Shown piece after piece: positions 3,116 to 49,897 of a stretch of DNA of 49,897 nt (position 1 is the stretch's first letter; each line of letters starts with the position of its first letter). The stretch lies in the UHGV virus genome UHGV-0143838; one strand, given 5' to 3'. Both the position numbers and the translations under genes were made by a program. The notes beneath the pieces were generated by a model, which made no database searches, was not told the origin of the DNA, and worked only from the letters and a program-made list of their open reading frames with translations. Source of the DNA: a virus.

Positions 3116-4210
3116 TATAATACCATATACGACAATAACAGCTAGAACATAAAATATTATACCTACCCGTGAAATATCGGAATTAAACCATTTGAACATT
3201 TTCATTAAAGAATAAACAACTCGATCAAGGGACGATGTTTTCTCCCTTACCTCCATACATGACAGCTTGCACTCACTGTCATCTATCTGGTTAAGAATAC
3301 TCATTGCCTCATTTCGCTGTCCTTTTCCCAAGAAATGTCTGGCTAATATAAGTCGTTTGTCCACAGAAGATATATCATCCTGAATTAATCCATATAATAT
3401 ATGGATATCTTTTTGACTCAGTTGTTTCTTGTTTTCTCTATCTTCATAGTAAAAATCGAGGACGAGTGGGTTGTCTGACATACTTTTATCGATAGATTTG
3501 ACAACAGCATCCCATCGATGACTGTCCATATCGGCTAAAGATAATATAGGGTATAACTTCTCAATGACACGTTCCCCTACAGGAGAATAATAAAATCTAT
3601 GATGTGTTTTTTTATAAAATGAGTCTGATATATTGGCTATAACACCTGTATTCTCATTTTCTGTAGTTTCCCAATAAAATCTCATTCCATATTTTTCACT
3701 AATAAATGATAGAAAAGCATGACGTGGAGCATAAACTATTTCTAACTTTTTACTGAATGCTCTTGCAGCATCAAACATAAGATATACGTTCAGATCACAG
3801 TCAGAAAAGTGATTAGCATAAGCCTTAGCTACTGTAGCTGATGGTTTATAATAAAAGTTAGCTCCTAATATTTTGTTTGCACAGTCCAAGAAATTTTCAG
3901 TAGTATCATCAATCCTACATGTATCTTTTACTTTCTTTAAAAAATTATTTATAGCCCCATATGCTTTACGCGCTTCGTTAGAATTAATGATACCATTTTG
4001 CTCATCCATCCTGACGAGGCGATGAGTCAGGTTTAATGGGTCATAGTCCGCAAATACATCCGGGGTATGTTCAAATCGTTCGGCACGCGTTGCACTTTTA
4101 TCTTTGGTCAGAGTTATAGATACGAATGAGATAACAAGCACAGGAAGAATAATTAACGCCACAGGCATTATTAATTTTCGCAAAGTTAATAATTTGATAC
4201 GCAATAACAT
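3044..4210 (-). CDS. hypothetical membrane-anchored protein (N- and C-terminal TM segments)
   Basis: ORF 388 aa; N-terminal hydrophobic anchor (PVALIILPVLVISFVSI) and C-terminal TM (VGIIFYVLAVIVVYGIILIFVG); no family recognised. Confidence 0.5.
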   Translation of the reverse strand: MLLRIKLLTLRKLIMPVALIILPVLVISFVSITLTKDKSATRAERFEHTPDVFADYDPLNLTHRLVRMDEQNGIINSNEARKAYGAINNFLKKVKDTCRIDDTTENFLDCANKILGANFYYKPSATVAKAYANHFSDCDLNVYLMFDAARAFSKKLEIVYAPRHAFLSFISEKYGMRFYWETTENENTGVIANISDSFYKKTHHRFYYSPVGERVIEKLYPILSLADMDSHRWDAVVKSIDKSMSDNPLVLDFYYEDRENKKQLSQKDIHILYGLIQDDISSVDKRLILARHFLGKGQRNEAMSILNQIDDSECKLSCMEVREKTSSLDRVVYSLMKMFKWFNSDISRVGIIFYVLAVIVVYGIILIFVGRMQINNRNKNKGNNLNQV

Positions 4211-4330
4211 TTAATCATCCACTGATAATAGAAAAGCAAATGTTAACACTAAATCAATCAAGCAGTAACTTATAATTGGCTTAACTACGAATCTTTACAT
4301 TGTTATTACCCATCCAAGTAACTCATTAAA

Positions 4331-4350
4331 TTAGTTAGTTAGTTAGTTAG
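4331..4350. repeat. tetranucleotide microsatellite (TTAG)5
   Basis: Five perfect tandem TTAG units read directly; intergenic, about 120 bp upstream of the 3044-4210 start codon. Confidence 0.9.
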
Positions 4351-4511
4351 TTTTATTTTGAAAATTAATTTTAGATTTACTAACTCTACAAACTTGTATA
4401 CTTATCAATAAAATAGAATGTGCATAACAAAAACAAAATACAAACAGCAAAAATTTAATAACAAATAGATGAATATTATGCATTCTCATATAATCTAATA
4501 CAGATCTAAGC

Positions 4512-5768
4512 TTAGTTAGTTGCTGCCTGCGTTGATTTTGTGGCATTGATTTTCAGATTATTCAACATCACCTTATCGACAGGTTGTAGTTGCTGTCCTA
4601 ATAGGGCTGCTAATAAAATATTTGTGTCTTCTGTTCTTTCTATTAGAAGCATCTGTAATCTTAAATCAATGGCCTGCATTCTTGCCTGCTCATGTGCGGT
4701 TTCTTTTTCATCTGTACTGCTGATCTTGACCTGCCATGCATCAGCACCAGTAGTATCCGCATAGCGAGAATAGATCTCATATCTCAACATTTCCCATTCC
4801 GAAGGTTTAGACGGGAACTCTGCTCCGGGGAATAATGTCGCATACTTGGTTTTCACAGACGCATCAGTCCACGCCTGACTTGCTCCTGCTGTAGAACCAA
4901 GTCCTGAGCCGATATTTACCCCTCTTGAGTTTACTGATACATCACCAGATTTCTTTATTGCCAGAATAGAATCAACAGCATTAGTTCCCGCTGTGCTTCT
5001 GGCAACAAAACTTGAGAATGCTGACAGGTATTCGCGTCCTTCTTTCGTATCTTCAAGACTCCTGTCGTTTAGCTGCTGTAGCGGTAAATTACCAATCAGA
5101 TTTCGCTTAGCAGCATCAGCCACTTTCATCTGTTTAACATCATAAGATTGGTTTGAAACTTTATTCCCCTGAGCATCAGATATGGATAACGGTGGTGTGG
5201 TGAGTGAGGTAGCAGATTTATCTTTATCAGCATATGCACCAATAGAACTACATCCACCTCTGTTGTATTTCACATCCTCGTCAGAACAGACTTCAATTGA
5301 GACTCGGCCCATCACGTTATTTTTAGCCTCATTTATACCGGTGCTCGCTCCCGTAAACATTTTCACACTATTTTCAGCTAAAGCAGCTTTAGCTGAGCTT
5401 GTGTTTGATCCTGCCGACCCTCTACCTCCTGCTGCTGTAGCTTCCTCACAAGCATTAGCATCAGGAATTCGCTTAAGGATATTTTGCATTCTTTGCTCCT
5501 GAATAGCTTGGTTTGCATTGCTTATAACAGAGTTCTTTTGATTCTCATTAGCAGTAATATTAGCCTGTGCAAGTTTGTCATTCATTGAGACTAATGTCTC
5601 AATCATTCCATTTCCCATAGATTGAGGGTATGCCCCCATTACGTAAGGTGTCAATACTTCTTCCGTGACGGGCCAGACAGCAAAAGCTGTATTTGAATAC
5701 AGAACAGAAAAACACAAAATCGAAGTCGCTGCTATTCTTTTTATTTTGAAATTACCATGACTCATCAC
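4512..5768 (-). CDS. hypothetical secreted protein (Sec signal peptide)
   Basis: ORF 418 aa; N-terminal signal-like sequence ending AFA; RBS AAGGGAG precedes ATG at 5765; Ala/Ser/Gly/Asn-rich mature region. Confidence 0.55.
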   Translation of the reverse strand: MMSHGNFKIKRIAATSILCFSVLYSNTAFAVWPVTEEVLTPYVMGAYPQSMGNGMIETLVSMNDKLAQANITANENQKNSVISNANQAIQEQRMQNILKRIPDANACEEATAAGGRGSAGSNTSSAKAALAENSVKMFTGASTGINEAKNNVMGRVSIEVCSDEDVKYNRGGCSSIGAYADKDKSATSLTTPPLSISDAQGNKVSNQSYDVKQMKVADAAKRNLIGNLPLQQLNDRSLEDTKEGREYLSAFSSFVARSTAGTNAVDSILAIKKSGDVSVNSRGVNIGSGLGSTAGASQAWTDASVKTKYATLFPGAEFPSKPSEWEMLRYEIYSRYADTTGADAWQVKISSTDEKETAHEQARMQAIDLRLQMLLIERTEDTNILLAALLGQQLQPVDKVMLNNLKINATKSTQAATN

Positions 5769-48797: not shown

Positions 48798-48828
48798 AAA
48801 TAAAAACAAAAACCCGCCGAAGCGGGTT
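48798..48828 (-). terminator. intrinsic terminator of the hok transcript
   Basis: Minus strand AACCCGC-uucg-GCGGGUU followed by UUUUUGUUUUUAUUUU. Confidence 0.65.
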
Positions 48829-48896
48829 AAGTGCGGGTGCGTTGAGGATGCCTGACACATCAGAGGTGGCGAGGGATTTCTCCCCCGCCTGGTCTC

Positions 48897-49052
48897 TTAC
48901 TCCTCAGGTTCGTAAGCTGTGAAGACAGCGACCTCCGTCTGGCCGGTTCGGATTCGTACCTCGCAGAGGTCTTTCCTCGTTACCAGTGCCGTCACTATGA
49001 CGGTTAAACAGATGACGATCAGGGCGATTAACATCGCCTTTTGCTGCTTCAT
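48897..49052 (-). CDS. hokD: Hok/Gef-family type I toxin (HokD/RelF-like)
   Basis: 51 aa from the internal ATG: MKQQKAMLIALIVICLTVIVTALVTRKDLCEVRIRTGQTEVAVFTAYEPEE, the Hok/Gef consensus; the longer in-frame ORF to 49109 is probably leader. Confidence 0.85.
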   Translation of the reverse strand: MKQQKAMLIALIVICLTVIVTALVTRKDLCEVRIRTGQTEVAVFTAYEPEE

Positions 49053-49515
49053 AGCCTGCTTCTCCTTGCCTTTCGGCACGTAAGAGGCTAACCTACGTTT
49101 GTGAAGCATAGATTGGGCCTCAGATTAATGTTAAACGTCTTGCAGGACGCGTAATGTTAACTGGGGCTTTTCTCTATCTGCCGTTGGTGTTCATGCCCGA
49201 GGCAGATAGCCTCAAGCACCCGCAGCAATTCTACTTAACTCACGTCACCTCGCCAATATAAAATCAATCAGAGAGGTGATTCATAAGAACGATAACAAGA
49301 CAATAAATTGCCATTACTGCCGCAATAGCCAGCGCACATTTCAGAACCAGCACGATGACCTCCCATATTTGACGTACACGCGCATGGTTCAATATGTAGC
49401 AACCTATTTCTTGCTTCAATATAAAATCAGGTATTGTTGTATAACTATTTAACTAACTCCCTATCCCCACATCTCAGGCGCTCAACGTCTGTGTGCGGGG
49501 CGTTTTTTTAATACC

Positions 49516-49599
49516 TCACATCCAGTGGCAAATCGAATACACCACCAGCGCCACCGCTATTGCAATTCCTACCGTTGTGAATGCTTCAGGCCAGGTCAT
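49516..49599 (-). CDS. unlisted 27-aa hydrophobic peptide, translationally coupled to the upstream gene
   Basis: ATG overlaps the upstream TGA (ATGA) with GGAGG RBS 9 nt upstream; MTWPEAFTTVGIAIAVALVVYSICHWM. Confidence 0.35.
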   Translation of the reverse strand: MTWPEAFTTVGIAIAVALVVYSICHWM

Positions 49600-49877
49600 C
49601 GCAAAACATCCTCCGCGCTTATCAGTTCGTTCCGCTTCAGGTAGTCCATCGCCTTCTCCGGTAATTTGCAGTCTGGATTAGCTTTTTTCAGTTGACTGAC
49701 CAGTCGTTTAACCCACATTGTTAATTCGCCAACTTGGTTACTGGATGCTAATGGATTGTCGGCTTTACCCAGAATGACAGCACAGCAGGCCTCTTTGAGA
49801 ACCCAATCAACAGCATCTTTCCATACTCCTGTTTCGACTGGTGGATTCTCACGCTTTACCTGTTCATAAAAGCGCAC
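49596..49877 (-). CDS. hypothetical protein (may extend beyond the window edge)
   Basis: 93 aa; not RelE/RelB-like by sequence; 5' end within 20 nt of the window end. Confidence 0.45.
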   Translation of the reverse strand: MRFYEQVKRENPPVETGVWKDAVDWVLKEACCAVILGKADNPLASSNQVGELTMWVKRLVSQLKKANPDCKLPEKAMDYLKRNELISAEDVLR

Positions 49878-49897
49878 GGCTTTAACCAGTCCTTCTG

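Follow-up and report, generated by a model that had tools for sequence, protein, structure and literature searches.

Relationship to described hok loci

The hok/sok locus of R1 is plasmid borne and has a demonstrated role in post-segregational killing. A close phage homolog of the locus described here, hokW-mokW-sokW of the Stx2 phage 933W and the Sakai prophage Sp5, is a functional toxin-antitoxin system of type I that depends on RNase III and Hfq and that, after mitomycin C treatment, promotes both lysis and the release of Sp5 phage (PMC8621323). A further relative, hokD (relF), lies in the Qin cryptic prophage of Escherichia coli K-12. Here, a locus of this group was analyzed at positions 48,798 to 49,599 of a 49,897-nucleotide (nt) stretch of the virus genome UHGV-0143838, which is referred to below as the window. 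Positions are those of the window, and all features lie on the minus strand unless the plus strand is named. The locus is most probably an intact hokD/hokW-type hok-mok-sok type I module (a probability of about 85%, judged from sequence), and it is accompanied upstream by two short hydrophobic open reading frames (ORFs) of 27 and 29 codons. The module itself is already known, as hokD is in RefSeq and the close homolog hokW-sokW has been characterized.

The layout of the locus is the same as that of the 933W locus, and the hok mRNA is 94.8% identical to hokW, without gaps, from its 5' tac element to its 3' fbi element. A homolog of the 27-codon ORF is also found directly upstream in 933W. The window carries an extra block of ~250 nt between the 27-codon ORF and the hok promoter, which holds the 29-codon ORF, whereas 933W has neither this gene nor a hairpin in that interval. 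The hok -35 hexamer of 933W is TTGCGG, and hokW diverges right after fbi, lacking the AACCCGC...GCGGGTT terminator of the window and being followed by a YgiW/YdeI-like gene (933W locus 1450 to 1572). In addition, the 933W locus is situated at the prophage end near the attachment site (att) and not before rem, DUF968, and Q.

With hokD of the K-12 Qin prophage, the window shares an identical Hok protein and DNA that is 99.3% identical over 269 nt, and the downstream neighbors are alike (rem, ydfU [DUF968], and Q). In MG1655, only window positions 49066 to 48798 are shared (5021 to 5289 within MG1655 positions 1640000 to 1650000), and relBE lies directly upstream. As the homology begins only at position 49066, with relBE upstream of it, K-12 hokD is without the promoter, tac, the mok start, and Sok. 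The truncation of K-12 hokD was reportedly described by Pedersen and Gerdes in 1999. The window thus shows a complete, ancestral-type hokD locus, of which the textbook K-12 copy is a version truncated by relBE.

Compared with hok/sok of plasmid R1, the order of elements is the same, namely, tac, the mok ribosome-binding site (RBS) and start, a Sok promoter located within the leader (-35 and -10 hexamers 17 nt apart), the hok site, and, close to the 3' end, fbi. In the minimum free energy (MFE) fold of both mRNAs, the two ends are closed on each other. The R1-type locus has GGCGCUU at its 5' end and AAGCGCC near its 3' end, at the places of tac and fbi, and the difference from the window is compensatory. 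Since these R1-type elements also pair in the R1 MFE fold with different letters, the long-range closure has been kept through compensatory differences. The identity of the toxins is only moderate, and the Sok hairpin of the window carries a 16-nt insertion relative to the Rfam consensus. The Pas small RNAs (sRNAs) of prophages, which were considered because one paper cites hokW-sokW, are sited near the lysis genes and are unrelated.

The hok-mok-sok module

The toxin coding sequence occupies positions 48897 to 49052 and encodes 51 amino acids (aa). It matches the Pfam family HOK_GEF (PF01848) with an E value of 3e-23 and 81.6 bits (cutoff, 22), and the product is identical to K-12 HokD at 51 of 51 residues and to HokW of 933W at 47 of 51. 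The NCBI annotation pipeline PGAP names the gene hokD in identical genomes. A sequence-only reading of this DNA had recognized a 51-aa Hok-family toxin with a strong downstream terminator, and both parts hold: the hok intrinsic terminator (48801 to 48828, found by a terminator scan) consists of AACCCGC-TTCG-GCGGGTT, whose 7-bp stem lies at positions 48828 to 48811, followed by a T-run. The position of the hok start codon needs a small correction, from 49053 to 49052.

The hok promoter, located by a promoter consensus scan, is TTGGCG-17 nt-TAGAAT (49228 to 49256), and its hexamers are kept across ~120 loci with a variable spacer. The predicted full-length hok mRNA is ~417 nt long (48805 to 49221), with its 5' end placed by the promoter together with position 1 of the Rfam model and its 3' end by the terminator. 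The MFE fold of this 417-nt RNA has a z score of -6.15 against shuffled controls. The first 12 nt of the mRNA form the tac element (GGGUGCUUGAGG, 49210 to 49221), which is paired, in the MFE as well as the centroid structure, with the fbi element (CCUCAACGCACCC, 48835 to 48847) that immediately precedes the terminator. The leader matches Rfam RF01794 over the full length of the model, with model positions 1 to 157 at 49221 to 49047 and 113.1 bits against a gathering score of 59. This Rfam family is named "sok" but matches the hok-sense strand and is a hok leader model rather than an antisense RNA model, so that strand calls made from RF01794 can mislead.

The mok frame (48897 to 49109), which was identified from the ORF listing and the layout of mokW, has 70 codons, is in frame with hok, and starts with an ATG at 49109, 8 nt downstream of the ribosome-binding site GAGG (49121 to 49118). 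In 933W, mokW is annotated with this layout; it, too, is 70 aa long and has its stop in common with hokW. On the plus strand, the Sok promoter TTGCCT-17 nt-TAACCT (49066 to 49094) was read directly from the sequence and is placed as TTGCGC-17-TATCCT is in the R1-type locus. The predicted Sok antisense RNA of ~71 nt (49101 to 49171, plus strand), with coordinates transferred from the annotated sokW of 933W, is identical to sokW at 65 of 71 positions. The RNA is predicted to fold into a long hairpin, with an unpaired 5' tail ahead of it and a U-rich tail behind it (z score of -4.56), and it spans both the mok start codon and the mok RBS. The sequence-only reading had expected mok and Sok within 49053 to 49300 and stated that they could not be delimited by eye; their presence is confirmed, and they can, together with the leader, be delimited within 49047 to 49256. 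The search that it proposed for fbi, tac, and Sok promoter elements in the leader located all of them, together with the mok start and the Sok hairpin with its U-tail. Because the promoter, tac, fbi, mok, Sok, and terminator are all present, the locus is to be regarded as intact and not decayed; with every regulatory part in place and homologous to the tested hokW-sokW, a decayed locus lacking sok is excluded as the alternative to the Hok/Sok assignment.

By homology with R1 hok/sok and hokW-sokW, the sigma-70 promoter at 49256 to 49228 would produce a stable hok mRNA of ~417 nt, which the pairing of 5' tac with 3' fbi would keep closed and untranslated. Slow trimming at the 3' end would then let the mRNA refold, making mok, and hok coupled to it, translatable. 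The short-lived Sok RNA (49101 to 49171, plus strand), transcribed from its own promoter, would pair across the mok start region, thereby blocking mok and hok translation and leading to cleavage by RNase III. When the Sok level drops, for example, upon loss of the element or prophage induction, Hok would enter the inner membrane and kill or lyse the cell.

Some further observations concern the hok transcript. The codon for Tyr47 of hok is TAC followed by G (48911 to 48914), which gives UACG in the mRNA. UACG is the motif at which TadA reportedly edits A to I in the hokB, hokC, hokD, and hokE mRNAs, with Tyr being recoded to Cys (bioRxiv 10.1101/2025.08.07.668861). A weak Rfam match to isrK (RF01394), with 24.9 bits below the gathering score of 50, covers the hok 3' untranslated region and terminator (48807 to 48888) and is probably driven by the two hairpins there. 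IsrK of Gifsy-1 is found at a comparable place, upstream of a Q-like gene.

The 27-codon ORF

The ORF of 27 codons (MTWPEAFTTVGIAIAVALVVYSICHWM, 49516 to 49599) starts in an ATGA overlap with the stop codon of the preceding gene, 10 nt after a GGAGG (49614 to 49610), as the sequence-only reading had noted. Its copies were collected with a degenerate DNA pattern for the first codons, which yielded >120 loci in IMG/VR and, together with other loci, 142 copies. Nearly all of these copies have 27 codons, with 55 alleles of exactly this length, and the length variants include in-frame deletions of 3 nt and 12 nt and ORFs of 25 and 23 codons. The commonest peptide (MTWPEAFTTVGIAMAVALVVYSICRWG) is encoded by 26 distinct DNA alleles, and divergent members still begin with M[TS]WPEAF and still have a hydrophobic helix that is about as long. 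At the codons outside the search pattern, the ratio of nonsynonymous to synonymous polymorphism (pN/pS) is 0.24 in the frame of the ORF, whereas the other sense frames give 1.09 and 1.44. A single hydrophobic segment is present in the peptide (best 17-residue window, 2.26).

The ORF is found behind at least three unrelated proteins, whose C termini are PPQEVNQ, NIEQEVNR, and ISAEDVLR, with DUF551, Ea22/EaA-like, and phrog_660 proteins being represented. In almost all copies, the upstream frame ends at the TGA of the overlap (a few have an internal stop), and a GGAG-type site lies in its last codons. The ATGA was demanded by the search pattern, and its presence in all 140 copies is accordingly not independent evidence. 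Among 116 informative copies, ~94 have a hok gene no more than 3 kb downstream; the remaining 22 copies are without hok, and what follows them is a bidirectional terminator or another coupled gene. As the ORF is also present without hok, it is an operon-terminal gene in its own right and not part of hok. In the window, the 27-codon ORF and hok are not directly adjacent, contrary to their placement in the sequence-only reading: the 29-codon ORF with its own predicted promoter (49419 to 49264) and a hairpin with terminator (49466 to 49509) intervene.

By tblastn, the ORF was found in 90 phage genomes, all from Escherichia or Shigella except for one record deposited as an Actinobacillus phage. 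PGAP leaves it unannotated, and a few GenBank records label it "bacteriophage protein" or "hypothetical." A 62-aa plus-strand ORF antisense to it was rejected as a gene, because its pN/pS of 0.29 is expected from shared wobble positions and it ends in nonconserved flanks. An apparent grouping of the peptide with DUF551 proteins was an artifact of partial gene calls and does not reflect a fusion. Taken together, the comparative evidence (conserved length, overlap, RBS, purifying selection, and a hydrophobic helix) agrees with the proposal of a second small membrane peptide coupled to the preceding gene, and the ORF is very probably a real, conserved gene for a small membrane protein. Its single-helix product would be translated by ATGA coupling to the last accessory gene of the early operon.

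The 29-codon ORF upstream of the hok promoter

The inventory of small genes in the sequence-only reading was correct for the 27-codon ORF and missed a further one between it and hok. This ORF (MLVLKCALAIAAVMAIYCLVIVLMNHLSD) has 29 codons and runs from a GTG at 49353 to a TGA at 49264, with GGGAGG at 49364 to 49359 and a spacing of 5 nt. Its product is very hydrophobic, with a grand average of hydropathy (GRAVY) of 1.95 and a best 17-residue window of 2.92. Pattern searches recovered copies at 139 loci, and in the 137 that span the complete 90 nt and represent 32 alleles, the frame is without exception intact and starts with GTG. The RBS is GGGAGG or AGGAGG in most upstream sequence types and AGGAG or GGGGG in a minority, and in one allele, the stop has changed from TGA to TAA. 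The only other open frame over this ORF, on the antisense strand, has stops in 36 copies, and it gains these stops through changes that are synonymous in the 29-codon sense frame. A 58-aa plus-strand ORF antisense to it, which is annotated in phage HannyBb, was rejected on account of these stops in 36 copies and its lack of an RBS. An RBS-sequestering hairpin in the 5' untranslated region was also considered and is not kept in other sequence types.

The predicted promoter of the 29-codon ORF is TTGAAG-17 nt-CATATT (49391 to 49419), identified from its conserved hexamers, with a predicted start site near 49385. Across copies, the -10 hexamer is invariably CATATT, and the -35 hexamer is TTGAAG, TTGAAT, TTGCTG, or TTGATT; the spacing is always 17 nt, although at least seven unrelated spacer sequences occur. 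In the window and usually elsewhere, the ORF abuts the hok promoter, with its stop 8 nt before the hok -35 hexamer, and the hok tac element begins exactly 42 nt past the stop in 121 of the 139 copies. Thirteen copies, Shigella flexneri included, are without hok; in these, the promoter and the ORF are retained, and the homology ends ~20 nt past the stop. A single-helix peptide of 29 aa would be made from its own promoter, by a transcript that probably reads on into hok.

The database proteins that contain the 29-aa core are all from Escherichia, are sporadic, and are labeled "hypothetical" or "membrane protein." Their N termini differ because gene callers guessed different starts, and PGAP does not annotate the ORF at all. 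A species-level genome scan for the 29-codon pattern found it only in Shigella and in three short contigs of metagenome-assembled genomes (MAGs). These contigs were binned as Collinsella, "Candidatus Scatousia," and Haemophilus, and they are most likely misbinned E. coli prophage DNA. In a widespread chromosomal prophage remnant, represented by E. coli ECCWS199 (4040 to 5313), the 29-codon gene and hokD lie back to back with an AbiH abortive-infection gene, and the region of the 29-codon gene's promoter is overlapped by TTGATT-16-TATAGT, a promoter-like site for AbiH.

Both the 27-aa and the 29-aa peptides are most likely bona fide small inner membrane proteins, as far as their sequences and conservation can tell. 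Against Pfam, PHROGs, NCBIfam, and PADLOC, they gave chance transmembrane hits only and matched no family, and a full-text search of a literature library for the peptide strings found no paper. They resemble the unannotated small membrane proteins of phages and prophages, that is, single-helix peptides from small ORFs: both are conserved, are shorter than 30 aa with one predicted helix, are encoded in an operon or behind their own promoter, and fall below the length limits of gene callers. They differ from peptides of that kind in belonging to no Pfam, PHROGs, or NCBIfam family.

A predicted plus-strand terminator upstream of the 29-codon ORF

In the interval that separates the 27- and 29-codon ORFs, a hairpin (49466 to 49498) is followed by a run of seven T residues (49503 to 49509), and together they form a predicted plus-strand intrinsic terminator (49466 to 49509). 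The fold of this segment has a z score of -3.2 on the plus strand and -1.17 on the minus strand. The G-U pairs do not settle the strand of the hairpin, and the T7 run favors the plus strand. Hairpins of different sequence are found at the same place in two other sequence types, with a weaker T-run. The terminator most likely insulates the early operon from antisense transcription arriving from the hok/sok side.

In size and hydrophobicity, as well as in having its own promoter and a strong RBS, the 29-aa peptide resembles the toxins of the type I systems Ibs/Sib, ShoB/OhsC, ZorO/OrzO, and TisB/IstR. It differs from them in that it shows no sequence similarity to these toxins and in that the ORF has no conserved antisense or divergent sRNA gene. 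An Rfam search of positions 49225 to 49640 on both strands returned no match even at E values of ≤5, and no cognate antisense or divergent antitoxin RNA conserved with the ORF was found among its copies in other contexts or in Rfam.

Alternative explanations

Several observations weigh against the interpretation given above. The -10 hexamer of the Sok promoter (TAACCT) is weak, and a strict consensus scan did not pick up this promoter. No post-segregational killing by chromosomal hok loci was reported in earlier work, as cited in bioRxiv 10.1101/2025.08.07.668861. For the 29-codon ORF, the pN/pS outside the search pattern is 0.61 both in the sense frame and in one antisense frame; as these substitution ratios do not separate the frames, the case for this gene rests on the integrity of the ORF, its RBS, its start and stop, and its promoter. 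The second of these points bears on the possibility that the hok locus, although complete in structure, is silent in function in the manner of other chromosomal hok loci and is a passenger without a role for the prophage, since the earlier work cited in that preprint found that hokA, hokB, and hokC of the chromosome did not mediate post-segregational killing. However, every regulatory element is conserved across hundreds of prophage copies, and the close homolog hokW-sokW is active, with its deletion halving phage release (PMC8621323), so that a silent passenger appears unlikely. The 27-codon ORF might, in turn, be no gene at all but a conserved nucleotide linker, such as a mosaic recombination joint, or an RNA element that ends the early accessory region. 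Its location does coincide exactly with a mosaic boundary, where the genes upstream are unrelated and the modules downstream vary, and PGAP does not annotate it. Speaking against both a linker and an RNA element are the pN/pS, which is 0.24 in the ORF's own frame but at least 1.09 in the remaining sense frames, the 26 DNA alleles that encode one peptide, and the deletions of 3 nt and 12 nt that stay in frame; moreover, divergent members hold the M[TS]WPEAF start and the helix, and the RBS and ATGA overlap are retained behind three different genes. We consider this explanation very improbable and prefer a small membrane-protein gene.

For the 29-codon ORF, the block that holds it could be a second upstream promoter and leader for hok, with the open frame untranslated and incidental. 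The position of the stop 8 nt before the hok -35 hexamer, the absence of a terminator between the two, the fixed distance of 42 nt to tac in 121 of 139 copies, and the weak pN/pS evidence would all fit such a leader. Set against this are the frame that is intact in 137 of 137 copies with an invariable GTG and a conserved RBS, the allele with a stop-to-stop change, the antisense stops that arise by sense-synonymous changes, and the 13 hok-less copies, which retain the promoter and the ORF with the homology ending ~20 nt past the stop. A mere leader is therefore a decidedly weaker explanation, with little probability, and a translated ORF is preferred. A different proposal is that the ORF encodes a second type I toxin, whose antitoxin would be either a long cis-antisense RNA of the Ibs/Sib kind or a divergent sRNA, both ending at the T7 terminator (49503 to 49509); in the former case, the RNA would start from a plus-strand promoter with TTAACT at 49235 and TAAAAT at 49264, which overlaps the hok promoter. 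A small, very hydrophobic peptide with a strong RBS and its own promoter is what such a toxin would look like, the gene lies in the window between a promoter-like site and a terminator that are both on the plus strand, and a known type I toxin adjoins it. Yet, the key second base of the candidate antisense -10 hexamer varies among copies (with TAAAAT, TGAAAT, and TGTAAT at similar frequencies), and the copies in other contexts (Hanny-type, AbiH-flanked, and hok-less) keep the promoter and the ORF with no equivalent of the plus-strand terminator. In addition, neither strand has an Rfam match, and the C-terminal tail of the peptide is acidic or neutral rather than basic. The second-toxin proposal is accordingly given only a slim chance.

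Position in the prophage

Several E. coli chromosomes, those of THO-006 and SMS-3-5 among them, carry a lambdoid prophage to which the right end of the window (48700 to 49897) is 99.9 to 100% identical. In the matching records, the order on the minus strand begins with replication genes and small accessory genes (DUF1627, DUF977, DUF4014, DUF7167, and others). These are followed by a hypothetical gene of 171 aa, then hokD, a pair of small genes labeled hypothetical, DUF968, the Q-like DUF1133, and lysis genes. The gene immediately upstream of the 27-codon ORF, of which the window holds the 3' part (49596 to 49897), is this 171-aa gene, a PGAP coding sequence in the identical genome THO-006, with a PHROG match to phrog_660 at an E value of 2.2e-47. 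It had been taken for a 93-aa gene from the sequence alone, but it is a longer gene that runs off the end of the window.

Downstream of hok, the 87-aa ORF (48416 to 48679) encodes a Rem homolog that is 72% identical to K-12 Rem, and the 92-aa ORF beyond it (48071 to 48349) is a member of phrog_1212. The order hok-rem-DUF968-Q agrees with that of Qin, and the suggestion that the toxin gene holds the position of hokD in Qin-type prophages, upstream of DUF968 and Q, is borne out by the rem-like, DUF968, and DUF1133/Q genes that follow here too. Within this lambdoid prophage of E. coli, the locus occupies the nin-like segment, with the replication and accessory genes on one side and rem-DUF968-Q on the other.

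Implications

The enrichment of hok genes in prophages has already been documented, and in this locus, only the two small genes are mildly new; both encode peptides of fewer than 30 aa and are widespread in E. coli and Shigella prophages. The 27-aa peptide, the 29-aa peptide, and Hok might be viewed as a cassette of three small membrane peptides, with hok as its third member and with the 29-codon gene, under a promoter of its own, adjoining the hok promoter. In such a cassette, the 29-aa peptide would be a new type I-like toxin or a modulator of Hok at the membrane, acting, for example, as an anti-Hok factor or in lysis timing, and the 27-aa peptide, with a membrane function related to this, would come from a conserved gene that ends the lambdoid early accessory operon. 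We regard this proposal as speculative and rather improbable. Should one or the other of the small peptides act on Hok activity, on lysis timing, or on superinfection exclusion, a protein layer would be added to a system that has been regarded as purely RNA regulated.

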